Assembly (NCBI GenBank): GCA_030065175.1
Contig: JASJDH010000001.1
Coordinates: 854-64,853, forward strand
Direction of reading: 5' to 3'
Source: Leptolyngbyaceae cyanobacterium MO_188.B28
Lineage (GTDB): Bacteria > Cyanobacteriota > Cyanobacteriia > Phormidesmidales > Phormidesmidaceae
DNA: 64,000 nt
How positions within the stretch are numbered: position 1 is the stretch's first letter; the number at the start of each line of letters is the position of its first letter. This document shows positions 1,585-27,646 of this stretch, one piece after another. Position numbers and translations under genes: made by a program. Under the pieces are notes generated by a model. The model was not told the DNA's origin. It saw nothing but the letters and a program-made list of their open reading frames with translations, and ran no database searches.

Positions 1585-1992
1585 ACTTGTCCTCCTCATC
1601 ACCACATATTACATTGTAAGGCTTCCTTTAAGAATTTCTTAATTATCTCTGAGGATTTAACTTGTTGAATCATCAACTTTCTTGGCCTCAGGTCTTATTA
1701 AATGAGGTTTTTTAAGAGCTTAGAATTTCTATAAATGGGAACAGTGTCTGAAACTTAACTTAATAATTCTCGGAGTAACAGTCTCCTATCGCTCTATTAG
1801 GGTAAACCGCGAAACTCTACAAAAGCGTATAGGCGATAACAGCCTTCCCTATCCTTCTTCTCCCTATCCTTCAAATTATCCCCACATCTAAGGGCAGCGA
1901 CAATCTTTACCTAGTTCTAACCTGCGGATTAATCTGCAGGCTATCCAAACTAGCATACTTTAAGAACTTCTCAAGAACTTAAGGGAATTATG

Positions 1993-2208
1993 TTAGCTGA
2001 CGACTGTCCATAAGCCAAGCCATGGACCTAGGAATCGAATGGTAAACCAAGCTATAAGGGCGACTATGATGCCAATCCACGCTCCCCGGTTGGCTAATCG
2101 ATAGAATGTCAAAAGTTGGGATTTGGTAATCGGTAGCCAAGAAACCATAGGAGCTTCTTTTCCGTATTCTTCTCCCAAAATACTTTGGCGACGCTTGGAT
2201 TCTCCCAT
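1993..2208 (-). CDS. small membrane protein (71 aa)
   Basis: Basic N-terminus MGESKRRQS followed by one clear hydrophobic helix (AWIGIIVALIAWFTIRFLGPWLGLW). It resembles small cyanobacterial proteins starting MGE(A/S)KRR, but I assert no family name. The overlapping 75-aa ORF in another frame is rejected. Confidence 0.45.
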   Translation of the reverse strand: MGESKRRQSILGEEYGKEAPMVSWLPITKSQLLTFYRLANRGAWIGIIVALIAWFTIRFLGPWLGLWTVVS

Positions 2209-2269
2209 TATTCAAATCCTCTAAAAAAATAAAACATATAGATATACCCTCAATTGAGTCTAATACATC

Positions 2270-3871
2270 TCAGTCCAGTACTTTACACTCCGAATTGTTG
2301 AACCAGTTTTCGTCAATATAATTTGTGCGGGCGGCAGGGCTTAAAGCTGATAGAATCTGCCGTCCATAGCTGCGGTAATTGACTCGATTGTCTAATATCG
2401 CAACAATGCCTTGGGTATTTCTAACGGGTGCGATCGCCCGTTGAAGTTCACTTAACGCTTCCGGCAGTAGGTAAAGTCTGAACCAATCTTGCCTCAGCCG
2501 TTTATAGTAGGCCACTCGACTAGCCACCAAAGGGTTTTCTAAAGAAGGGATAGGCAGGGTTGCAATAATTAGCAATTGGGGCGCCGGGAAAACCCCTTGA
2601 TGGTCCCGCCAAAATTCCCAACCCGTCACCAAAATCCCATTGTCATCGGGACAGGTTTTTTCGACTTGCACTCGCGACCCAAATTCAGCTGCGAGCATTG
2701 ATCCAACTTGGGCTTTTAGGGGCGTATCCCCCACTAAGACCACTGTGGGTCCCTGAAGCGGCTTTCCTACTGAAAGCAGGGCGTAAATTTCCCGCATCAT
2801 CGCCCTTTGAAATTCGCTGGTATTGGGCATCGGTAAGCGCTCGGGCAAATAGAGCTGAATCAACTCTTGCTGACGATCGAGAGAGAATTTTAAACAAGTT
2901 ACATCCCCTAGCCCTACCCGCTGACGATAGACAGGCGCTTTAACCTCTTGATCGATGGCTGCGCCAATCAGCACTAAAGGTTGTTGCGGCCATATTTCAG
3001 CCATAGCTGAGGCAATTTCAATGGGTCCGCAATGGAGGCTAAATTGCCCTTGGCGCCGGGTGATGGTTGACCAAATGAGTTTTTCTGGCTGATGAAAGCA
3101 GCGCCAAAACTGACGCCATGGGTCTGGCATTCCAGAGTCAGTCAGCGATGAACTCGCCTCAGTAGATTGAAACTCCTCATAGAGTTCGGTCAGAATTTGC
3201 TGTTCTGGTTCATCCACCAAATAGCAGTTATAGGGATTGGTGGGATGTTGGAATATTGCCCGGGTCAGTTTGACGCGGATATCGCGAATCAGATTTTGGT
3301 GGCCGGGATACGCCATCATTAAGCTATCCCAGTCCCGGCCCCCGATTTCTGCGGTCAGTTGAGTGTGCGCCCAAGTTTCCAGGTCGTCCACCCCATCTAG
3401 TAGGGTGGGGACGCCATCCGGGAACTGGGTTTGTGTCGTCAGACGATCGGCTAACCAGGCTTGGGGAGTAGTCAATAACAGCCCCCTAAAGTCTGGATTC
3501 GGCCAGCTATCGCTGACATGAACCGGCTTAAGGATGGGCATCCACTGCCGCAGCCGAGGAATTTCCACCATCAAGATGCGTTGACGCACCGCCTCAGGCA
3601 AAACCAAAATGACCGGATCAGGCCACAGCAGAACGGGCATGAGATAGCTGAGTCTATACCGCCCGTGATAAGCAGAAGAGCTGCCAGCTTGGATTAAGGC
3701 GCTGCGCCCCAAGCGCAGCGCTCTGGCGACCAAGCGCGCCATGGTCAAATGATGGGGCCAGTAAGGTTCCCCCTGCTCCCGCAAAAACGCTCGCAGTCGC
3801 TGATGAACTTCCGCCTCAATCACAGGTCTGTTGCAAAGAAGTACAGCACAATGACCTTCATTGTGACACAA
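2270..3871 (-). CDS. DinG/Rad3-like helicase-family protein with apparently degenerate ATPase motifs
   Basis: 533 aa. The N-terminal HHLTMARLVARAL..ALIQAGSSS matches the Q-motif/Walker A region of DinG-type helicases. The C-terminal TGWEFWRD...LIIATLPIPS..NPLVASRV...LLPEALSELQRAIAPVR...VAILDNR matches helicase motifs IV-VI. The start codon is uncertain. Confidence 0.6.
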   Translation of the reverse strand: MCHNEGHCAVLLCNRPVIEAEVHQRLRAFLREQGEPYWPHHLTMARLVARALRLGRSALIQAGSSSAYHGRYRLSYLMPVLLWPDPVILVLPEAVRQRILMVEIPRLRQWMPILKPVHVSDSWPNPDFRGLLLTTPQAWLADRLTTQTQFPDGVPTLLDGVDDLETWAHTQLTAEIGGRDWDSLMMAYPGHQNLIRDIRVKLTRAIFQHPTNPYNCYLVDEPEQQILTELYEEFQSTEASSSLTDSGMPDPWRQFWRCFHQPEKLIWSTITRRQGQFSLHCGPIEIASAMAEIWPQQPLVLIGAAIDQEVKAPVYRQRVGLGDVTCLKFSLDRQQELIQLYLPERLPMPNTSEFQRAMMREIYALLSVGKPLQGPTVVLVGDTPLKAQVGSMLAAEFGSRVQVEKTCPDDNGILVTGWEFWRDHQGVFPAPQLLIIATLPIPSLENPLVASRVAYYKRLRQDWFRLYLLPEALSELQRAIAPVRNTQGIVAILDNRVNYRSYGRQILSALSPAARTNYIDENWFNNSECKVLD

Positions 3872-3914
3872 GCCAATGGTTTCCCCCAGTGATGGCTCTC
3901 ACCAAAATTGGAGA

Positions 3915-4222
3915 AATGGGTGGGTGGGGAGGATGGGGAGGATGGGGAGATGGGGAGCAGGGGAGGCAGGGGGAGCGAAGGAGGATAGGAAGAATAGGGG
4001 AGATGGGGGAGATGAAGAGCCAAATGCAATAGCGTTAGGGGATGGCTTCACTAGCGCTATTGCATCGGGACATCACTGATCCGAAAACTCTCAATAGCTC
4101 TAAGATTATTCTTCCGACAGAAATCAGTTCTATATCCCATATCCCTCCCTCTCCCCCATCCTCCCTATCTCCCCATCTCCCCCATCTCCTCTTCCCCTGC
4201 TCCCCCTGCCTCCCCTGCTCCC
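3915..4222. repeat. polypurine (left arm) / polypyrimidine (right arm) imperfect inverted repeat with an internal 11-bp hairpin
   Basis: 3915-4019 is almost pure G/A, built of degenerate GGGGAG(A/G)(T) units. 4141-4222 is almost pure C/T. A perfect 24-nt inverted match pairs 3953-3976 with 4199-4222 (GGGAGCAGGGGAGGCAGGGGGAGC). A perfect 16-nt match pairs 3999-4014 with 4174-4189 (GGAGATGGGGGAGATG). A central perfect 11-bp stem pairs 4024-4034 with 4055-4065 (ATGCAATAGCG). Confidence 0.85.
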
Positions 4223-5128: not shown

Positions 5129-6569
5129 AGGTGACAGTTGAGCCTAATCCCTCTCCCATACTGATAAACTGCACCACTCCTCCCATGGCTTCTACCAGTT
5201 TCTGGGAGATGGCTAATCCTAATCCTGTCCCGCCATATTGTCGGGTCCGTTCGCCGTCGACTTGGCTAAAAGTTTGGAAGAGGCGATCTTGCTTTTCTAG
5301 GGATACGCCGATTCCGGTGTCGGCGACGCTGATTTTGATGACGCCAGACCATTCCTGGTCCTGGAAGACGACTTTCTGTGGTTTAACTTCGGCGCTGATG
5401 GTAATTCCCCCCTCTCGGGTGAATTTGATGGCGTTCCCCACCAGGTTTAGCATCACCTGAAGCAGTCGCTGATAGTTGCCATTGAGGATGATCTCGTCAC
5501 GGGTAGCTGGCATCACAATGTCGAAACAGAGCCCCTTCTGTTCTGCTTGGGGTCGGGTAAAATTCTCAACTTCTGTGAAGAGTTCCTTGAGATTGACGGG
5601 CCCCATATCGATCTGCATCTTACCCGCTTCGATCTTGGCGATATCCAAGACATCGTTGATCAGATTCAGCAGATGTAAGGCTGATTTATGGGCTTCCTGG
5701 ATGAAATCTTCCTGCTCTTTGGGATTATCGGCCATGCCATCCAACACCAGCTTTAGGAAGCCAATCATGCCATTGAGGGGCGTCCGAAGTTCGTGGGACG
5801 TATTGGCTAAAAACTCGCTTTTGAGGCGAGAGGCTTCTTCAGCCTGTTTGCGGGCTTCTTCAGCTTGTTTGCGGGCTTCCTCAAATTCCCGGTGTTTCTC
5901 TAGCAGGGTTTCATTAACCCGCTGCAGTTCCATTGCTAATGCTTGACTTTCCCCAAACAAGGTGGCATGGGCGATCGCAGTGCCCACCTGATCTGCTAAG
6001 TCACTCAGCAAAGCGATTTCAGTGGACCGCCATTGATGGGAGTGATTCAGTTGAAGCACAATTAGGCCGTTAGGCTGATCCTGGTAAAACGTGGCGGTCG
6101 CCAGAACTGTTTGAGACTGCCCAGGGGAATCGGCGATGGGGTGAATATCCACCACCGGTTGCAAGCTCGTTAGGGCCTGATTCAAGTATGCGGTTGTCCC
6201 CAGATCAAAGACTTTACCGATATTGGCTTCCCTTGAATTTTGACGGTACTCAGCGGCGACCGCCACTTGCGTATCGCCTTCTTTATAGGGGCAAATCAAA
6301 CAGCGATTCACCTTGAACATTGCCCCTAGCCCATCTACCGTTTGCTGCCAAATTGTTTCGAGGTCTAGGGTGCGACGAATATTCCAGGTCAGTTGAGTGA
6401 GCAGGGTGTTATCGCTCACAGGGGACGTATGCTGACCCAAGAAGCGGGTTTGGTTTTCTGACGGGTCTAAGCGTTCTTCTGGCTCGAAGGCGGATAGGCC
6501 AGTAATCTGGGTTTTGTCCATCTCTGCCGACAGGTCTGATGAAGGTTTGGAGTTGGCAGGACGATTCAT
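5088..6569 (-). CDS. sensor histidine kinase (GAF-like N-domain, coiled-coil linker, HisKA, HATPase_c)
   Basis: 493 aa. H-box SHELRTPLNGMIGF, N-box NLVGNAIKFT, G-boxes DTGIGV and GGTGLGLAISQKLV. The linker carries a duplicated ARKQAEEARKQAEEA. Confidence 0.85.
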   Translation of the reverse strand: MNRPANSKPSSDLSAEMDKTQITGLSAFEPEERLDPSENQTRFLGQHTSPVSDNTLLTQLTWNIRRTLDLETIWQQTVDGLGAMFKVNRCLICPYKEGDTQVAVAAEYRQNSREANIGKVFDLGTTAYLNQALTSLQPVVDIHPIADSPGQSQTVLATATFYQDQPNGLIVLQLNHSHQWRSTEIALLSDLADQVGTAIAHATLFGESQALAMELQRVNETLLEKHREFEEARKQAEEARKQAEEASRLKSEFLANTSHELRTPLNGMIGFLKLVLDGMADNPKEQEDFIQEAHKSALHLLNLINDVLDIAKIEAGKMQIDMGPVNLKELFTEVENFTRPQAEQKGLCFDIVMPATRDEIILNGNYQRLLQVMLNLVGNAIKFTREGGITISAEVKPQKVVFQDQEWSGVIKISVADTGIGVSLEKQDRLFQTFSQVDGERTRQYGGTGLGLAISQKLVEAMGGVVQFISMGEGLGSTVTFTVLLYQEPVVTA

Positions 6570-14544: not shown

Positions 14545-15462
14545 CTACTCCCATTGTTTTTGCCGTTGTTCATTCACGAAGGCTTCGGCTTGGTCGATAC
14601 TGGCAAATCTGCCGGGATATCTGTCGATTAAGACCATAGCCAAATGATGGCAGTCTCTATTTTGATTGATATTAATGCCATCGGGAAGTGGAGAATTACA
14701 AATAAATGGCGGCGCTTCTCCCTCTAACTGCGCTTGGGTTAAATCTTTGGCGGTTCTAAAGTCAGTATTCAGGAAGATGGCGTTGCTCAAAACAGCGTTA
14801 CCAAAGTTGGTGTCGTTGATATTGGCGGAAAAGAAGATGGCATAGCGGAGAACTGCGTGGAAGAGGTCAGCGTGGAAGAGGTCGGTTTTGCTGAGGTCGG
14901 CATGGAAGAGATCGGCGTTACGGAGGTTAGCGTCGCTGAGGTTTGCAGAAGCAAGAACCGCATAGCGGAGATCGGCGTTATGCAGATCGGACTGATAGAG
15001 ATCGGCTTCGCTTAAGTCGGCGTAGAAGAGGTCAACTTCACTGAGGTCGGCGTCGCTGAGGTTGGCGTCGCTGAGGTTGGCGTTGCTCAGGTCGGCGTCG
15101 CTAAGGTCAGCGGAAAAGAGGACGGCGTCGCGGAGGCGAGCGTCGCGGAGATGGGCGTGGCGAAGATGGGCGTAGCGCAGTTTAGCGCCCTCTAACGAGG
15201 CTTGAAATAGGGATCGACAGTTGCCAAACAGCCGTTCTGAAAAATAGGCGGGCAGCCACTTTATTTGTTCTTGAACAGCACAGCCCTTCACTAAATCTTC
15301 GACGGCTTTTTTCTCTGTATATAGTCCATTTTGAACAAGTTCCGTCTGATTCGCTTTAACGCTGGCTTCACGGAGTTTATGTTCGATCACCCCAACGACA
15401 ACCAATATCGGGATAATCATCCAACTTGCAAGTTTGATCGGATTCCTAAGTATTTTCACCAC
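14545..15462 (-). CDS. pentapeptide-repeat protein with N-terminal transmembrane anchor
   Basis: 305 aa. N-terminal helix WMIIPILVVVGVI, then a long run of A(D/N)LS(D/N)-type pentapeptides (ADLSDADLSNANLSDANLSDADLSEVDL...). Confidence 0.85.
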   Translation of the reverse strand: MVKILRNPIKLASWMIIPILVVVGVIEHKLREASVKANQTELVQNGLYTEKKAVEDLVKGCAVQEQIKWLPAYFSERLFGNCRSLFQASLEGAKLRYAHLRHAHLRDARLRDAVLFSADLSDADLSNANLSDANLSDADLSEVDLFYADLSEADLYQSDLHNADLRYAVLASANLSDANLRNADLFHADLSKTDLFHADLFHAVLRYAIFFSANINDTNFGNAVLSNAIFLNTDFRTAKDLTQAQLEGEAPPFICNSPLPDGININQNRDCHHLAMVLIDRYPGRFASIDQAEAFVNEQRQKQWE

Positions 15463-19677: not shown

Positions 19678-20223
19678 CTATACATTATCGCGGTGTCCAT
19701 CTGGGTAAATGGTGTTGCGATCGCACTCTGCGCCGTCTAGACAGGCCTGTCTTGCTTGAAAAAGGTTACATCCTGACAACTGGGCTTGCTGAAAATTTGT
19801 GCTGTTAAGCTTGGCGCGTGACAGATTGGCGTTCTTTAAAGTCGCTTGGCTGAGATCCGCGTGACTCAGGTCAGCGCCATATAGGGTTACGCCTGACAGA
19901 TTGGCCCCCTGAAAGTTGCTGCACCGCAAATTAGACCTGGAAAAATTAGCGCCCCGGAGATCAGCATGACTGAAATCCGCTGAGTAGCCCTGAATATTGC
20001 TCAGTTCCGCTTGCTGGCCATTTGCATTTTGCAGATTCGTCTGACTCAAATTGGCATAGGGAAGATAGGCCTGACTGAGGTCGCTTCCAGATAAATTGCT
20101 ATTCCGTAAATCAGCTTCGAATAAGTCAGTCAGACTCAAATCAATTTCACAGAAGTCTCGCCTGCCAGACTGATAGGCCGCAAGCAATTCCTGGGCTGTC
20201 ATTTTTTGCATGTTATCCTTCAC
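19678..20223 (-). CDS. pentapeptide-repeat protein (soluble)
   Basis: 181 aa, almost entirely A(D/N)L(S/R)x pentapeptides (ADLRNSNLSGSDLSQAYLPYANLSQTNLQNAN...). Confidence 0.85.
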   Translation of the reverse strand: MKDNMQKMTAQELLAAYQSGRRDFCEIDLSLTDLFEADLRNSNLSGSDLSQAYLPYANLSQTNLQNANGQQAELSNIQGYSADFSHADLRGANFSRSNLRCSNFQGANLSGVTLYGADLSHADLSQATLKNANLSRAKLNSTNFQQAQLSGCNLFQARQACLDGAECDRNTIYPDGHRDNV

Positions 20224-20575: not shown

Positions 20576-20866
20576 ATGGCTATCTTCTTCCTCTGCCTGG
20601 GCCAAGCGTTGGGTCGAGACGCGGCGGCGGCGCTCTATCATGCTGCTGATTTAAAGCAAGCTGTGGTAAAGTATTGCGATCGTGTCTATCGTTACCTTTA
20701 CATGGATGCGGGGCGCTTCGGTCAACGCCTTAATTTAGCCGCCGTTCAACTTAACTTAGGCGTAAGCGGCATGGGTGGTTTCTTCGACGATAAAGTGAAT
20801 GAGCTTCTAGGTATCCCTAAGGAATAAGCTGTATTATATTTTACAACTCTAGGAAGGCCTTTATAG
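20576..20866 (+). pseudogene. remnant of a nitroreductase / SagB-type dehydrogenase family gene (C-terminal third only, with in-frame stop)
   Basis: The 83-aa ORF KYCDRVYRYLYMDAGRFGQRLNLAAVQLNLGVSGMGGFFDDKVNELLGIPKE matches the C-terminal region of the nitroreductase fold. A TAA at 20825-20827 is followed in frame by AVLYFTTLGRPL and a stop (20864-20866), which is the expected family C-terminus. No intact N-terminal part is found upstream, and a TGA sits immediately before the ATG. Confidence 0.55.
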
Positions 20867-20873
20867 ACTTGCT

Positions 20874-23864
20874 ATGACTCTTACCCAGGTTTCGGGCGCA
20901 TTCCTGATATTTATTCTATGTCCAGTGATTGGCGGGCTTCCGCTAATTGCCTGGATTACCCGTAGTCTGACTGGGAAACGGCTCTCTCAGGTTGGCACAG
21001 GGAACGTGAGTGTATCGGCGACTTTCTACCATGGGGGTCGGCTAGCGGGTATTCTGGCGGTTTGCGCCGAAGCATTGAAAGGGGTCTCAGCGGTTCTCTT
21101 AGCCCGACGCTTTTTCCCGGATGACCCTACCTGGGAGGTCATTGCACTGATCGCTTTAGTAATGGGCCGCTATTGGTTCGCTAAAGGGGCAGGCACGACC
21201 AATGTGTTCTGGGGCTTTACTGTCCATGATCCGATTGTGGCTGGACTGACTTTCTTAATCAGTTTCATCAGTTTCACAGTTTTCAGGGAGCGGAAGCAGG
21301 GGCGGTTAGGGGTGTTAGTCGTTTTAACCGTGATGACGGCTTTGCTGCATAGCCAAAATGGCGCGCGCGTGCTTGCTGTGGCTGCCTTGAGCAGTTTGAT
21401 CGCTTGGATTTATCATAAAATTCCGGATGATTTAGACATGCCTGTATCGGAAGGTCGACTTGAATCTCGCAAACTGTTTCGTTTTTTTCAAGGCGATCGC
21501 GCCCTCCTGTCCTTGGATCAATCCCTCAATCCTGAACGAGTAGGCAATAAGGCGGCGACCCTGGCCCAATTGCGAAGCTGGGGATATCCGGTGCCGAGGG
21601 GGTATGTTCTGCTAGCTGGAGATGACCCCGCCGCCCTAATCGCCATTGCTCAGCCATCGCCTCAGCAACCCATCGTCGTCCGCTCCTCCGCCATTGGCGA
21701 AGACAGTTTAACTGCCTCTGCGGCGGGTCAGTATGTATCTATTTTAGGGATTACCGCTCAGTCTGCTTTGGAATCGGCGATTACCCGCTGTTTTGCTTCC
21801 TACAACGGCTCTACCGCCGCCCAATATCGTCAAGACAGGGGACTTCCAAACCAGGGAATGGCGGTGATTGTGCAACAGCAGGTGCAGGGCGTATTTTCTG
21901 GGGTTGCTTTCAGCCGCGACCCCATTGCCCGCTACGGAGACGCTGTGGTGATTGAAGCGTTGCCAGGGCCCGCCGCCGCCGTCGTATCTGGAAAAGTCAC
22001 GCCGGAACAATATCGAATTCCCATTCAAGACCGGGATATGGCGCCAGCGGATCCGGCTGGGGATAATCCAGTCAGTTGGCTTCTACCCGAATCTCTTAAT
22101 TTGGAAGTGGAGGGATCCGGGAAAGTGCCGCCTCGATTGCTGCAACAGGTTGCGTTCCTGGCTCGTCACCTGGAAATTCGGTTTCACGGCGTTCCCCAAG
22201 ACATTGAGTGGAGTTATGACGGCCAAGGACTCTGGCTTTTGCAAAGTCGTCCGATCACGACCCTTTCGCCGATTTGGACCCGTAAAATCGCCGCCGAAGT
22301 TATCCCGGGAGTGATTCATCCGTTGACCTGGTCCATCAATCGTCCCCTGACTTGCGGCGTTTGGGGCGAAATTTTCACCCTGGTCTTGGGAAAGCGCGCC
22401 CAAGGCCTCGATTTTGGCGAAACGGCTCGATTACATCACTCTCGCGCTTACTTTAATGCGTCTCTGCTGGGGGATATTTTTCTCAGGATGGGGCTGCCGA
22501 CCGAAAGTCTAGAATTTCTGACTCGGGGAGCCAAGTTCAGAAAACCCCCTTTGCTGTCAACCTTACGGAATATTCCAGGGCTGATCCGATTGGTTCGGCG
22601 AGAACTCCGGCTGGAAAAAGATTTTCGTCGGGACGCCAAGGAACGCTTTGCGCCCACTATAGAGGACCTCGCGGCGCAACCAGCTCCGGGTCTCTCTCCA
22701 GAAGCGTTGCTAGATCGGATAGACCGGATCCTGGAGTTGTTGCAATCAGCAACGTATTACAGCATCCTCGCCCCCCTGAGTTTGGCGGTGCGGCAGGCCT
22801 TATTCAAGGTCAACGACAATGTTTTGGACAATAGTCAAAATCCAGAGGTGATTGCACTGAGGGATCTTCAAGAAATTGCGCGCACCTCTCGTCATTTGCT
22901 GACGTCTCTGGACTCTTTACCGGATTCGTGTTCTACTCTATTTGCCTTATTATCGGAGAGCCCAGATGGGCAGACGATTCTCAAGCGGATTGACGGCTAT
23001 TTAGAGCAGTATGGCTACCTCAGTGAAGTCGGGACGGATATTGCTGTACCCACCTGGAAAGAAAACCCAGGGCCAGTTCGTCAATTGTTTACTCAGTACC
23101 TGATCAATCCGCTGGCGAATAAACCGCGGGAAATGGACTCCGGAGCGTCTATCGCCCAAGATCGGAAAACTCAACGGGTTCAGCGACGGCTTGATCTCAA
23201 GGGGCAAGTGACGCAGGTTTATAGCCTATTGCTGGCGGAACTGCGGTGGAGCTTTGTGGCGCTAGAGAAAATCTGGCTTTCCCAAGGGGTGCTCCAGGAA
23301 TCTGGAGAACTATTTTTCCTGGAATTTGACCAGATTCGCCAGTTAATTCTCCATCCCAATTCGGATTTGCAAGGGAGATTGACTTCAGCGATCGCAGAGC
23401 GTCGATCTCGCCTCAAGCAAGACCATAAACTGACGCCGACGCCTAATTTAGTGTACGGGAATGAACCGCCTCGCATAACGACTTCCCGGTTGACCTCGTC
23501 TGCTGCGATCCCGGCTCAGGTATTTACTGGGATTGGGGCGAGCTCCGGTCAGGCGGAAGGCGAGGTGAGAGTCTTGCATACGCTGCAAAATCTACCAGAA
23601 ATCAATGATCGTATGATCCTTGTCGTCCCTTTTACGGATTCTGGCTGGGCGCCTCTCCTAGCGCGTTCGGGCGGTTTGGTGGCGGAAGTGGGGGGGCGTC
23701 TTTCCCATGGCGCCATTATCGCTCGAGAATACGGCATTCCGGCAGTGATGAATGTCCCGAACGCCACTCAGCAACTCCGGGATGGCCAACGGGTGCGTTT
23801 AGACGGACAAACGGGGGTTGTGGAAGTGCTGCAGCGCAGTGCTGAGGAATGGGTGCAAAATTGA
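20874..23864 (+). CDS. fusion protein: PlsY-like polytopic membrane domain + PPDK_N-type ATP-grasp + helical middle domain + PEP-utilizer swivelling-His domain
   Basis: 996 aa. PlsY-like motif positions are GTGNVSVSATFYHGG, EALKGVSAVLLA and GRYWFAKGAGTTN. ATP-grasp motifs are NKAATLAQLRSWGYPVPRGYVL, VVRSSAIGEDS, MAVIVQQQVQGVFSGVAFSRDP and QDIEWSYDGQGLWLLQSRPIT. The His domain is GIGASSGQAEGEVRVL...GGRLSHGAIIAREYGIPAV. Confidence 0.85.
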   Translation: MTLTQVSGAFLIFILCPVIGGLPLIAWITRSLTGKRLSQVGTGNVSVSATFYHGGRLAGILAVCAEALKGVSAVLLARRFFPDDPTWEVIALIALVMGRYWFAKGAGTTNVFWGFTVHDPIVAGLTFLISFISFTVFRERKQGRLGVLVVLTVMTALLHSQNGARVLAVAALSSLIAWIYHKIPDDLDMPVSEGRLESRKLFRFFQGDRALLSLDQSLNPERVGNKAATLAQLRSWGYPVPRGYVLLAGDDPAALIAIAQPSPQQPIVVRSSAIGEDSLTASAAGQYVSILGITAQSALESAITRCFASYNGSTAAQYRQDRGLPNQGMAVIVQQQVQGVFSGVAFSRDPIARYGDAVVIEALPGPAAAVVSGKVTPEQYRIPIQDRDMAPADPAGDNPVSWLLPESLNLEVEGSGKVPPRLLQQVAFLARHLEIRFHGVPQDIEWSYDGQGLWLLQSRPITTLSPIWTRKIAAEVIPGVIHPLTWSINRPLTCGVWGEIFTLVLGKRAQGLDFGETARLHHSRAYFNASLLGDIFLRMGLPTESLEFLTRGAKFRKPPLLSTLRNIPGLIRLVRRELRLEKDFRRDAKERFAPTIEDLAAQPAPGLSPEALLDRIDRILELLQSATYYSILAPLSLAVRQALFKVNDNVLDNSQNPEVIALRDLQEIARTSRHLLTSLDSLPDSCSTLFALLSESPDGQTILKRIDGYLEQYGYLSEVGTDIAVPTWKENPGPVRQLFTQYLINPLANKPREMDSGASIAQDRKTQRVQRRLDLKGQVTQVYSLLLAELRWSFVALEKIWLSQGVLQESGELFFLEFDQIRQLILHPNSDLQGRLTSAIAERRSRLKQDHKLTPTPNLVYGNEPPRITTSRLTSSAAIPAQVFTGIGASSGQAEGEVRVLHTLQNLPEINDRMILVVPFTDSGWAPLLARSGGLVAEVGGRLSHGAIIAREYGIPAVMNVPNATQQLRDGQRVRLDGQTGVVEVLQRSAEEWVQN

Positions 23865-24999: not shown

Positions 25000-25372
25000 T
25001 GCGCTCCTTAGCCTGAGTAGGTGATCGACAACTTTCATAGTTCAACACTAGCGCTAAGATCCGAATACGTATCCTAATCTTTGTGACAGTTCTTACAGAG
25101 GTGGAGAGGTCGGTTTATTCGATGCTTGATGGGTCTTAAATCGGGTTCAATCAAGCGGCGTCAATCCCTGTGGGGTCGACTTTGTAAAAACAGTTTTCTC
25201 AGTCAAATAACTTCCCCCTGAAGACGGGGCCATTTTTCCTGGAAGTGGCTATTATTAGGCGGTCTGAACGTGTTGATGATTGAGTTCAGTCTAGTTTGTT
25301 CTGCAACGGGCTGTCTGAGTCATTGCATACGGTTTGAGGCGGTTTACTGACGAGGGAGAAGGGGAATCGACA

Positions 25373-27646
25373 ATGGTTCAACCAAAAATAAAACGAGCCC
25401 AAACAACAACCGTTGAGCCAGTTTTAGAGGTGTCCTACGGCGCTCGTTTTAGCAAGATTCCGCTTCGGGTCAAACGATTGCTTGCTTGGGGGGGGGAGGT
25501 CGCGTTTTTGGCGGTCAGCGCGCTTGGGCCTTTTCACCTGGGGGTGATGGTCGATGGTCGATCAGCGGCGGAGCCGGTTCCCCTCAATCCGGTACTGCTT
25601 CAGACCCAAGATGCGATCGCCCGTACTTTCTTCCTGCCTAAGCAAACGCTGGTTAAGACGGTTGCTCCCCTGACCAATCTGTTATGGTCAGTTGCTTTGG
25701 CGGCGCCAATCTGCTTAACGGGCGTGCACCTTTATGGATTAGCGAAAACGGGACAAAATTGGCCGAAGCGTTGGCTGGGATTACGTGTGACGACTCCAGA
25801 GGGGACGCCGCCTGGACTCCAGAGAGTTATTCGGCGGGAATTGCTCGGGCGTTGGGGAGCCCCGGTCGGGATCGCCTACCTACTGTGGTGTTGGAGCGGC
25901 GCTTTTCCGAGGTTAGGGATTTTGTCTATCCTATCTTTGCTGGCCCTTTTAATGGAAGGTCTTTCTTCTCAGCTCCAACGTAGACAGCGAGCGTTCCACG
26001 ATTTCTTGGCGGATACTCGGGTGGTAGACGCTCGGTCAAGAATAGGCCCGGAGCGGCATTGGAGCCCGACGGGGAGATATTCTTCGCCTGGATATCCAGA
26101 GGGGGGGCATGGGATTCGCTCCTTAGACCGCCCTTTAGATAATGGGGGAGGGGGCGATGCCGAATACTCGCTGATCTGGACGGAGGAATCGGGTGGGCTG
26201 ACATCAATTGTTTTGGCCCCGCGAGCAATGACCCCGCCTGGGCATTTCAATTCCCGGCGAAGTCGCCGATTCGGTTTGATGCTGGGGGGCGTCGCCTTGG
26301 TTGGTCTTTTGGGTTTGGCAGGCGTGCTCGGTTGGGTGTTGACGCATCGCCAACAAAGAATCCATGAGCAAGAATGGGGAGTCAGAAATGATCGAGTTTT
26401 TCTGGCGTTAGTGGAAATGCTGGCGTCAACGGCCAGCCCCCAGGCGATTGAGCACCGCACTGCTATCTTGGCCCTAGCCAGTAGTGAAGATCCGCGCGCT
26501 ATCGCTTTGGTCGCTGATATTCTGGCCCAAACCAGTCATCAAGAGGTGATGGAAGCGGTGCAACAGGCGCTAGTCACCATTGGGCCAGAAGCGCTCCCCG
26601 CCCTCAAACGTTTGAATCAAACCTTACTCAATGATCAAGCCGCCCTTCAACCAGCCGGGACCTCAGGGCAGGGTTCACAATACAGGACCATCGCCCTGAG
26701 GCAATATATGGTGAAGCGAGCGATCGCTAAAATCTTAACCCTCTATAGTGATCAGCTCCACTCGGTTGATCTGCGCCGGACTGATTTGGGTCAAGTTAAA
26801 ACAGGGGTGAGTCAATATCGCCTGGTGTTGGATCAAACCCATTTGGTCGGGATTCAATTTCGGGGCGCTCGACTATCGGGGGCGAGCTTTCGCAAAGGGC
26901 GCTTTTTTGGCGCGGGGGAAGACGCCCGGCCAGGGACATATGATGACTGGATCGCTGACCTGAGTGGGGCGGATCTGAAGGAAACGGATTTTACGGATGC
27001 CGACTTGAATCTGGCTGTCATGCAGAGGAGTAGCTTGCTACGCGCCACTTTCCATCGGGCTAATCTGATGCAAGCGAATTTAACCGGGGCGAATCTCAGC
27101 GGCGCCCGGTTAATTGGAGCCAATTTAAAGCAGGCTATTTTGAATGACGCCAGTCTCACCGGCGGCGATTTGACGGATGCGGATGTTTCCCATGCCTTGC
27201 TGCAAGGCGCCCGATTGGGAAGAGTGAGTGCGGTAGGCGCTGTTTTCCAGAATGCTAATTTGTCGCAATCCAATTGGCAAAATGCGGATTTGACGGATGC
27301 TGACCTGTCCGGGGCCAATTTGCAATCGGCCAATTTGACAGGGGCTCGCCTGAAATATGTCGATCTAAGCGACGCCAATTTGCAGGCGGCCCGACTACGC
27401 GGTTCAAACCTGACGGCAGTTAACCTTCAGGGCGCAAATTTAGCTGAAACAGATTTTCAGGATGCGATCTTTTACCCATCGGGATTTGTGATGAGTCGAG
27501 ATCAATTTATCCAAGCCATCCTGGATAGTGAGGAGACTCATCAGTTTGAAGGGGTTGACTTTAGTCAGGCGATAAATCTAGATGACGACCAACTCACTTA
27601 CATTTGCGCTCAAGGCGGTCTGCATCCGGCTTGCAGGGGACGTTGA
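25373..27646 (+). CDS. multidomain membrane protein: RDD-family N-domain, HEAT-like repeats, C-terminal pentapeptide-repeat domain
   Basis: ATG at 25373 (the ORF track starts at an upstream TTG). RDD-type region VKRLLAWGGEVAFLAV...GQNWPKRWLGLRVTTPEGTPPGLQRVIRRELLGRW. HEAT-like region ILALASSEDPRAIALVADILAQTSHQEVMEAVQQALVTIGPEALPAL. Long pentapeptide run ANLTGANLSGARLIGANLKQAILNDASLTGGDLTDADVS... Confidence 0.8.
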   Translation: MVQPKIKRAQTTTVEPVLEVSYGARFSKIPLRVKRLLAWGGEVAFLAVSALGPFHLGVMVDGRSAAEPVPLNPVLLQTQDAIARTFFLPKQTLVKTVAPLTNLLWSVALAAPICLTGVHLYGLAKTGQNWPKRWLGLRVTTPEGTPPGLQRVIRRELLGRWGAPVGIAYLLWCWSGAFPRLGILSILSLLALLMEGLSSQLQRRQRAFHDFLADTRVVDARSRIGPERHWSPTGRYSSPGYPEGGHGIRSLDRPLDNGGGGDAEYSLIWTEESGGLTSIVLAPRAMTPPGHFNSRRSRRFGLMLGGVALVGLLGLAGVLGWVLTHRQQRIHEQEWGVRNDRVFLALVEMLASTASPQAIEHRTAILALASSEDPRAIALVADILAQTSHQEVMEAVQQALVTIGPEALPALKRLNQTLLNDQAALQPAGTSGQGSQYRTIALRQYMVKRAIAKILTLYSDQLHSVDLRRTDLGQVKTGVSQYRLVLDQTHLVGIQFRGARLSGASFRKGRFFGAGEDARPGTYDDWIADLSGADLKETDFTDADLNLAVMQRSSLLRATFHRANLMQANLTGANLSGARLIGANLKQAILNDASLTGGDLTDADVSHALLQGARLGRVSAVGAVFQNANLSQSNWQNADLTDADLSGANLQSANLTGARLKYVDLSDANLQAARLRGSNLTAVNLQGANLAETDFQDAIFYPSGFVMSRDQFIQAILDSEETHQFEGVDFSQAINLDDDQLTYICAQGGLHPACRGR

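Follow-up and report, generated by a model that had tools for sequence, protein, structure and literature searches.

What is the role of a gene that joins a membrane domain resembling PlsY, the acyl-phosphate:glycerol-3-phosphate (G3P) acyltransferase, to a complete phosphohistidine dikinase of the rifampin phosphotransferase (Rph) type? The question is raised by a stretch of DNA of 64,000 nucleotides (hereafter the window) from Leptolyngbyaceae cyanobacterium MO_188.B28 (contig JASJDH010000001.1, positions 854 to 64,853), in which an earlier note, made from the sequence alone, had pointed out one open reading frame (ORF) of this composition. The analysis described here finds the fusion to be a real, widespread and uncharacterised enzyme of known parts, misleadingly named in the databases; its sequence predicts a membrane-integral enzyme of two modules that occurs throughout the cyanobacteria in addition to the ordinary PlsY.

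The ORF was found intact, as the earlier note had claimed, and its product of 996 amino acids (aa) is 100% identical to the record for the same organism (P0001). Its parts are the following:

20874..23864, + strand: complete fused ORF, 996 aa, ATG to TGA, PlsY-like membrane domain plus Rph-type dikinase
20874..21434, + strand: N-terminal PlsY-fold polytopic membrane domain, aa 1-187 (PF02660, hhalign, Foldseek against 5xj7)
21435..21506, + strand: tether, aa 188-211, with a conserved FRFFxGDRAL, the least confident part of the model
21507..22271, + strand: ATP-grasp (PPDK_N) nucleotide-binding domain, aa 212-466 (PF01326)
22272..23483, + strand: central domain, aa 467-870, mostly helical and corresponding to the part of Rph that binds rifampin (substrate domain)
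23499..23831, + strand: C-terminal swivelling phosphohistidine domain, aa 876-986 (PF00391), with His945 in GGRLSHGA

A Pfam scan of the ORF at E<=1 recovered three families and no others: PF02660 (PlsY) at aa 16-182 (E=1.9e-16, 61 bits against a gathering cut-off of 24.1), PF01326 (PPDK_N, ATP-grasp) at aa 263-466 (E=7e-41) and PF00391 (PEP-utilizers, swivelling His) at aa 911-981 (E=1.4e-22). At the same threshold there was no match to a phosphoenolpyruvate (PEP)/pyruvate TIM-barrel family, nor to the Dak2 or DegV families. Hydrophobic segments are restricted to residues 1 to approximately 180.

An AlphaFold2 model of the 996-aa protein, built with 63 homologues, has a mean predicted local distance difference test score (pLDDT) of 87.9 and a predicted template modelling score (pTM) of 0.76; pLDDT is mostly 83-95 in the N-domain and 57-60 in residues 190-210 of the tether. 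The top Foldseek match in the Protein Data Bank (PDB) is the rifampin phosphotransferase RPH-Lm (5hv1), with E=1.8e-28 over approximately 900 aligned columns, and the N-domain superposes on PlsY 5xj7 with a template modelling (TM) score of 0.76 and a root-mean-square deviation of 2.8 Å over 182 columns. The region from about residue 470 to 870 is mostly helix in the model, and in relatives the precomputed family PF27448 'Rph_4th' falls within it. Sequence comparison gives the same picture, since the solved proteins nearest in sequence come from the rifampin phosphotransferases of Listeria (phmmer E~1e-51; family profile E=9.8e-89) and the family profile also matches PlsY 5xj5 (E=1.8e-7). In the alignment with RPH-Lm, profile positions 264-464 correspond to residues 111-319 in the ATP-grasp domain, and positions 680-977 to residues 549-866 in the C-terminal third. 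When the family of fused N-domains was compared with canonical PlsY by profile-profile alignment (hhalign), the probability was 99.5-99.7% (E=8e-23 to 4e-26), and PF02660 was matched by 20 of the 21 fusion-family members tested.

The earlier note had read a PlsY-like N-domain, ATP-grasp signatures, a helical region of about 400 aa and an intact catalytic-His context from the letters alone, had seen no TIM barrel and had recognised in the soluble part the domain order of Rph. All of this is borne out: the motif strings that it quoted lie at the residues given, the order of domains is supported by Pfam, by the AlphaFold2 model and by Foldseek, and the predicted structure, once compared with PlsY and with rifampin phosphotransferase, matched both folds.

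The residues on which the activity of the dikinase module should depend can be located by reference to RPH-Lm, whose ATP-site and catalytic residues have assigned roles (PMC4844700):

21549-21551, + strand: codon of K226 (ATP-grasp), equivalent of RPH-Lm K22
21681-21683, + strand: codon of R270 (ATP-grasp), aligned to RPH-Lm R117
23706-23708, + strand: codon of the catalytic His945, in GGRLSHGA within GGRLSHGAIIAREYGIPAV (aa 940-958), aligned to RPH-Lm His825 in GGLMTHGA

In an alignment of 63 sequences, S944 and H945 are invariant, and little or no variation is seen at K226, R270, S289 (aligned to RPH-Lm T136) or at E445 and Q457/R459, the Mg/ATP residues. Every catalytic residue is intact in the window copy, and to judge from these residues the module looks catalytically competent and is predicted to be an Rph-type dikinase. 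By analogy with RPH-Lm, it very probably operates through the same phospho-His relay, in which ATP is converted to AMP + Pi.

The fusion has the domain order of RPH-Lm (5hv1-3, 5fbs-u) and of the other Rph-type enzymes, PigC, RedH and HapC included, namely an ATP-grasp domain, a helical substrate domain and a C-terminal swivelling His domain. The residues of the ATP site are conserved between them and the context of the catalytic His is similar, GGxxSHGAIxAREYGIPAV in the fusion as against GGLMTHGAVIAREYGLPAV in RPH-Lm. Unlike any characterised member of that group, however, it has an additional N-terminal membrane domain of seven helices, and it is conserved like a core cyanobacterial gene, not like one for resistance or secondary metabolism. 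PEP synthase and pyruvate phosphate dikinase also have the ATP-grasp and swivelling-His domains, but the fusion has no TIM barrel and its His domain is C-terminal instead of central.

The central domain (aa 467-870) is highly conserved within the fusion family. Its first half (aa ~465-680) shows no sequence alignment to the rifampin-binding domain, and there are no clear counterparts of RPH-Lm Arg666, Glu667 and Lys670, in a stretch where the alignment is weak. No curated NCBIfam model fits the fusion. All the named ones fall far below their cut-offs, with 243 bits against 999 for RIF_Ptrans_rph (NF041857), 161 against 1700 for NF000283, 216 against 1300 for the PigC model, 219 against 1350 for the RedH model, 164 against 740 for TIGR01418 (PEP synthase) and 42 against 843 for TIGR01828. 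On these scores, and because the first half of the substrate domain cannot be aligned, identification of the protein as a rifampin phosphotransferase, a prodiginine ligase or a PEP synthase was rejected.

If the kinase is so well preserved, is the membrane domain still the acyltransferase that its fold suggests? Residue roles and mutant activities are available from the structures and mutagenesis of aaPlsY (PMC5700162), and they can be placed on the N-domain as follows (aaPlsY numbering first in each replacement):

20994..21038, + strand: remodelled PlsY motif 1, GTGNVSVSATFYHGG, aa 41-55; S35 replaced by T42, N37 kept as N44, T41 replaced by S48, N42 by A49 and R45 by Y52
aa 66-70: EALKG, at the position of the DxLKG motif
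21165..21203, + strand: remodelled 'phosphate-hole' region, GRYWFAKGAGTTN, aa 98-110; H92 replaced by R99 and K104 by A106, G103 and G105 retained
21285..21305, + strand: RERKQGR, aa 138-144, a basic loop that stands where canonical PlsY has S-L-S-S with S142
21420..21434, + strand: conserved IPDDL that closes the last membrane helix, at the canonical position of H177-x-x-N180, exact register uncertain

Column counts were taken from 55 fused members aligned to the canonical PlsY profile. Among the contacts to G3P, the S35 position is Thr in every member, the R45 position is Tyr in 50 and the K104 position is Ala in 45; across the family, the loop with S142 has changed from S-L-S-S to R-E-R-K-Q-G-R, and H177-x-x-N180 has given way to Y-x-K-I-P-D-D-L, in a register that is uncertain. 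The last membrane helix was left unaligned by hmmalign, and a global hhalign alignment and an ungapped extension disagree on its register; no conserved His or Asn was found in it. The clamp on the G3P phosphate (S35, R45, K104 and N180) is thus not conserved, with Thr, Tyr, Ala and no Asn equivalent in its place, and neither are the residues that bind the 2-OH of G3P (S142 and H177). Other parts of the site have been kept: the oxyanion Asn, N37, is present in all 55 members, the carbonyl-binding hydroxyl of T41 is supplied by Ser in 51, and G103 and G105 of the glycine loop are retained. The H92 position is Arg in 52 of the 55; H92 is the only side chain that touches the phosphate of the acyl-phosphate in aaPlsY, in which H92K leaves 2% of the activity (PMC5700162).

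The earlier note had described the PlsY motifs as recognisable but substituted, and the changes proved to be real and family-wide, not a peculiarity of the window sequence. Furthermore, the GTGN, R99, GAGTTN, R138 and PDD elements are near-invariant across orders (45-55 of the 55 members), and because the replacements themselves are so well preserved, the pocket appears to have been remodelled under selection, not to have decayed. The conservation of N37, of a hydroxyl (Ser) at T41 and of the glycine loop argues that the N-domain participates in catalysis. The residue pattern, as far as sequence can tell, fits an acyl-transfer role and a lipid-presenting role alike.

One explanation of the fusion is that it is a genuine acyl-phosphate:G3P acyltransferase, with the dikinase acting as its regulator or as the supplier of acyl-phosphate for phosphatidic acid synthesis. 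In its favour, the PF02660 match stands above the gathering threshold, the fold is that of PlsY and many members bear the NCBI name 'glycerol-3-phosphate acyltransferase'. Nevertheless, the replacement of R45 by Tyr, of K104 by Ala and of the S142 loop, together with the lack of H177 and N180 equivalents, has to be set against the residual activities of aaPlsY mutants: R45A 1.1%, K104A 7.4%, N180D 3.3%, H177Y 0.03% and H177I 0.8%, the more conservative T41S and S35T retaining 45% and 17% (PMC5700162). Comparable single substitutions, then, leave 0.03-7% of the activity, and their combination makes canonical G3P acylation by the fused N-domain very unlikely. Among the NCBIfam matches listed, two concern the N-domain, and the one of these with a score given falls far below its cut-off, at 30.7 bits against 222.

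Genomes that contain both proteins weigh against this explanation as well. In Richelia sinica (L058), a canonical plsY of 226 aa (5591-6271) lies 3.7 kb upstream of the fused gene, and with its product as the query, canonical PlsY was found in four more strains that carry the fusion (Sphaerospermopsis BCCUSP55, Cylindrospermum FACHB-282, Nostoc ChiSLP01 and Nostoc linckia NIES-25), so that at least five strains have both. In Nostoc linckia NIES-25 the canonical gene is recorded on a 6.45-Mb contig and the fusion on the 1.78-Mb plasmid1. The canonical 226-aa protein keeps equivalents of R45, K104, S142 and H177/N180. Within the 64-kb window no second PlsY was found. Since canonical PlsY co-occurs with the fusion and the G3P contacts are replaced family-wide, it is well supported by sequence that the fusion is a paralogue and not the housekeeping G3P acyltransferase; the view of the earlier note that the N-domain is no ordinary enzyme of this kind can be maintained, and an unchanged PlsY activity is, in our judgement, very improbable. 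As a separate observation, the canonical PlsY of Richelia sinica reads GSGSTGATN, with Ser at the position of the 'oxyanion' N37 of aaPlsY, and its fused paralogue retains Asn.

In summary, the N-domain resembles PlsY (aaPlsY 5xj5-9) in its fold, in the positions of its motifs, in the oxyanion Asn, in the hydroxyl at the T41 position, in D/E-x-L-K-G and in the glycine loop. It differs from it in R45Y, in K104A, in the Arg at H92 and in the loss of S142, H177 and N180, its identity to PlsY is only 25-33%, and it is followed by a cytoplasmic extension of about 800 aa.

The possibility that two neighbouring genes were merged by assembly or annotation, or that the gene is a decaying pseudogene, has to be considered for any fusion, and it can be judged from the distribution of this one. 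A first homologue search recovered at least 120 full-length proteins of 960-1015 aa with at least 60% identity, from many cyanobacterial genera and including complete genomes, all of them with the same three Pfam domains. A second search, seeded with Cyanobacterium stanieri, added at least about 119 more (Cyanobacterium, Geminocystis, Prochloron, Halothece, Pleurocapsales, Lyngbya), which brings the full-length homologues to more than 200. In a scan that took one genome for each GTDB species, at least 596 genomes matched, and the best 80 loci, those analysed here, are nearly all cyanobacterial and match residues 1-985. In 79 of these 80 independent loci, complete genomes included, as in the window, the gene is a single uninterrupted ORF; the earlier note had held that two separate ORFs in related genomes would mark the fusion as an artefact, and among the relatives such a division is the exception. 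Among the matches listed there is no entry for Synechocystis 6803 or S. elongatus 7942.

The little that speaks for an artefact comes from two loci and from derivatives in some lineages. On a short metagenomic contig (L082), a PlsY-like ORF of 207 aa (1198-1821) and a dikinase ORF (1818-2222) overlap by 4 nt, either through a frameshift or because the gene is naturally split there, and in a metagenome-assembled genome (MAG; L075) the gene is interrupted (993-1844 and 1845-3950). The derivatives are degenerate or truncated: a group of 344-420 aa (P0177, P0184, P0187 from Alkalinema pantanalense, P0189, P0191, P0195, P0209 and P0212) has only a degenerate PlsY-like domain and a degenerate ATP-grasp domain, the central and His domains being absent. 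Against this stand the single ORFs just described and the intact catalytic residues of the window copy, and the distribution refutes an artefact for practical purposes, to the point that we give it almost no credence.

When the N-domain alone was compared with 1.84 billion cluster representatives, 74 matched at E<=1e-10, mostly fusions of about 900-1000 aa or their fragments; ordinary PlsY of about 200 aa appeared at E 1e-8 to 1e-4 with 25-33% identity. Because this search yields mostly fusions, the N-domain appears to be a distinct, divergent clade of PlsY that is almost confined to the fusion.

Three loci deserve mention for their origin or location. A distant fused homologue of 975 aa (P0217; L081 10001-12928) has an N-domain of 30% identity and the variants GTKN and SHCA; its 96-kb contig encodes GreA, reportedly missing from cyanobacteria, so the fusion probably also occurs outside that phylum. 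A contig from a Legionella-like 'Tatlockia sp.' MAG (L062) has a copy of typical cyanobacterial type, paired in a neighbour-joining tree with that of Aliterella (L064), and is probably mis-binned. In Nostoc linckia NIES-25 (L031), the 1.78-Mb 'plasmid1' that carries the fused gene is a replicon of megaplasmid size.

A more serious alternative is that the PlsY-like domain is an inert tether and that the kinase phosphorylates a hydrophobic xenobiotic or secondary metabolite entirely within its central domain. The soluble part is by itself a complete Rph architecture, the canonical G3P site has been destroyed and the model predicts a flexible tether (pLDDT 57-60, as noted above), all of which would suit an anchor. 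The near-invariant polar motifs of the N-domain, however, are needless for one, and the fusion is approximately 60% identical across cyanobacterial orders, which points to a conserved housekeeping substrate and not to a varied xenobiotic.

Evidence on this point also comes from a natural variant. The P0196 cluster, which includes SYNPCC7002_A0291 of Picosynechococcus sp. PCC 7002, is a colinear homologue of 900 aa and 29% identity that has retained the membrane helices and the overall architecture. Its N-domain has lost the motif-1 loop and IPDDL by deletion, as well as GAGTTN, and in its kinase K226 is replaced by Asp, VRSSA..GED and TDSGW are gone and SHGA reads SQGA; judged by its sequence, this protein of a model strain is a conserved pseudoenzyme. 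P0181 belongs likewise to a class of colinear homologues of 900-910 aa that have lost the catalytic motifs of both modules. The PCC 7002 protein keeps its helices, yet its N-domain motifs vanish together with all the kinase motifs, which suggests that those motifs are tied to catalysis and not to anchoring. Given this joint loss and the near-invariance of the polar motifs, the N-domain is probably more than a membrane anchor, and we regard a purely anchoring role as improbable.

What surrounds the gene is of limited help. ORFs from the best 80 loci and the window were clustered, and no universal synteny was found around the fused gene in this set; missing synteny is usual in cyanobacteria. Most of the apparent 'conserved neighbours' turned out to be antisense ORFs inside the fused gene itself and were discarded. 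Two lipase associations remain. One deep clade has, at each of its eight loci, an alpha/beta hydrolase of the Hydrolase_4 family 6-105 nt downstream on the same strand (L029 6957-7919; L043 13046-13897; and six other loci), its best named resemblances being to the phospholipase BipL and to lysophospholipase L2, both below cut-offs. In 14 Nostocales loci (L031 8050-9021 and 13 others) a GDSL-type lipase lies divergently upstream. Together the two associations hint weakly at a link to acyl-chain release.

The neighbours of the gene in the window offer no functional clue. They are pentapeptide-repeat proteins, a coiled-coil/tetratricopeptide-repeat (TPR) protein, a small Zn-ribbon membrane protein, RuvC, ChlI and a sigma factor, and scans for promoters and terminators gave counts at background. 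There are three pentapeptide-repeat proteins within 12 kb, at 14545..15462 (- strand), 19678..20223 (- strand) and 25334..27646 (+ strand), one of which is a fusion with an RDD membrane domain and with HEAT repeats. An ORF of 83 aa at 20576..20827 (+ strand), 47 nt upstream of the fused gene, matches only positions 83-156 of the 167 of the PF00881 (nitroreductase) profile; since only the C-terminal half is represented and the upstream frames are full of stops, it looks like the remnant of a 5'-truncated gene.

How, then, might the two modules work together? The architecture, the fold, the intact relay residues, the remodelled G3P site, the conservation and the co-occurrence of canonical PlsY are matters of observation, and from them we infer the substrate, the product and the coupling between the modules. 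The ATP-grasp domain would bind ATP, and His945 on the swivelling domain would accept the beta-phosphate, with release of AMP + Pi. The domain would then swing so that phospho-His945 delivers the phosphate to a second site, which the central helical domain would form. The PlsY-fold pocket, facing the cytoplasm, would take part with what it has kept, the oxyanion Asn, the hydroxyl (Ser) and the glycine-rich phosphate loop, in the absence of its former G3P contacts. In these general terms, an ATP-driven O-phosphorylation of a lipid that sits within the PlsY-like domain or next to it is, on the sequence evidence, a rather likely mechanism.

In the version of this mechanism that we favour, the carboxylate of a free fatty acid would be phosphorylated to acyl-phosphate, and the PlsY-like domain would either transfer the acyl group to some acceptor that is not G3P or hand on the acyl-phosphate; the route would serve to salvage fatty acids that lipases set free. 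A connection with acyl-phosphate chemistry, which the earlier note had also suggested, is one that we infer from several considerations. To our knowledge, acyl-phosphate is the only acyl donor of PlsY enzymes, and the residues that have been kept are those of the acyl-phosphate/oxyanion site; both facts favour a fatty acid. Two precedents favour it too: Rph-type enzymes such as HapC and PigC phosphorylate an oxygen in order to activate it for displacement (PMC13534948), and PlsY is known fused at its C-terminus to a FakB-like (DegV) fatty-acid-binding protein, an arrangement read as acyl-phosphate channelling (PMC5700162). By our own reasoning, a dikinase may also be thermodynamically suited to the formation of a high-energy acyl-phosphate, as PEP synthase is to that of PEP. 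The sequence from fatty acid through acyl-phosphate to an acceptor other than G3P is nonetheless put forward only as a tentative proposal.

Several points weigh against it. With Arg in place of H92, the retention of the acyl-phosphate site is not secure, as the low activity of aaPlsY H92K indicates. Hydroxyls and an aldehyde oxygen are the substrates known to us for the Rph family, and we know of no carboxylate among them. The second reaction could take place entirely in the conserved central domain, with no part for the membrane domain. Each lipase association amounts to a single evolutionary event, and the window has no such neighbour. The activation of free fatty acids in cyanobacteria has been attributed to Aas only (PMC10114076). 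Finally, the favoured mechanism is predicted from sequence and a structural model, and it is offered as a possibility and not as a probability. The full reading of the protein as a 'fatty-acid dikinase-acyltransferase', in which acyl-phosphate made through phospho-His is channelled directly to a domain derived from PlsY for the acylation of an acceptor other than G3P, must be regarded as doubtful.

Another explanation is that the fusion is a kinase of lipid hydroxyls: the PlsY-like domain would bind and present a hydroxyl lipid (monoacyl- or diacylglycerol, polyprenol, phytol and quinol being candidates), which phospho-His945 would phosphorylate with no acyl transfer. Rph itself phosphorylates a hydroxyl of the hydrophobic rifampin (PMC4844700), and HpeHI, one of the Foldseek matches (9goj), reportedly does the same with hydroxyphenylethanones (PMC12167813). 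A monoacylglycerol is bound in the active site of a PlsY crystal according to the title of entry 5xj5. The lost G3P clamp and the Arg at H92 fit a pocket rebuilt for the phosphate of a product, and the lipase-type neighbours would likewise supply lyso- or monoacyl-lipids. This explanation, however, leaves the kept oxyanion Asn (55 of 55) and the Ser hydroxyl (51 of 55) without a reason, and the gene context offers no candidate substrate. Cyanobacteria, moreover, already have dedicated diacylglycerol and phytol kinases, which counts against a further one. A kinase of this sort is a possibility too, if a slightly less likely one than the favoured mechanism.

If the favoured mechanism, the phosphorylation of fatty acids to acyl-phosphate, is right, the fusion would follow the same logic as FakA/FakB and the PlsY-DegV fusions, in which acyl-phosphate made at the expense of ATP is coupled to a PlsY-type domain; DegV occupies the C-terminus of PlsY, as the dikinase does here (PMC5700162). 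There is no homology to FakA/FakB; the resemblance is functional and hypothetical only, and the fusion would use a phospho-His relay (ATP to AMP + Pi) in place of the direct transfer of the gamma-phosphate (ATP to ADP).

The databases give the protein various names, among them 'glycerol-3-phosphate acyltransferase', 'pyruvate, water dikinase', 'PEP synthase' and 'PEP-utilizing enzyme'. On the evidence here, the first and the 'PEP synthase / pyruvate, water dikinase' label are both wrong. The earlier note knew of no experimental characterisation of the architecture, and a literature search agrees with it, since no functional study of a PlsY-like–dikinase protein was found. A 2023 review of cyanobacterial fatty-acid metabolism names only Sll1973 as PlsY (PMC10114076), and the authors of the PlsY structures, having looked for PlsY fusions, report DegV only (PMC5700162). 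No mention of SYNPCC7002_A0291 was found in any main text of the literature. The Anabaena tags alr3147, alr3397 and all2509 were followed up and set aside, as they occur only in expression tables or a review and none could be mapped to the fusion family.

The significance of the fused gene lies in its strong conservation in hundreds of cyanobacterial species and in the combination that it represents, in which the only fold known to use acyl-phosphate is joined to a family of kinases whose members activate hydrophobic substrates by phosphorylating them. Because of this union, it is a testable candidate for an undescribed step of cyanobacterial membrane-lipid metabolism, for which the naturally 'dead' copy of PCC 7002 provides a built-in comparison. 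Such a step could bear on the recycling of fatty acids, now credited to Aas alone, and on the engineering of strains that secrete fatty acids. If the fatty-acid mechanism were true, it would add to PlsX and FakAB a third way in which acyl-phosphate is made in nature. It would also give cyanobacteria a second means of salvaging fatty acids or remodelling lipids, one that is independent of Aas and possibly yields a lipid lacking an assigned enzyme.

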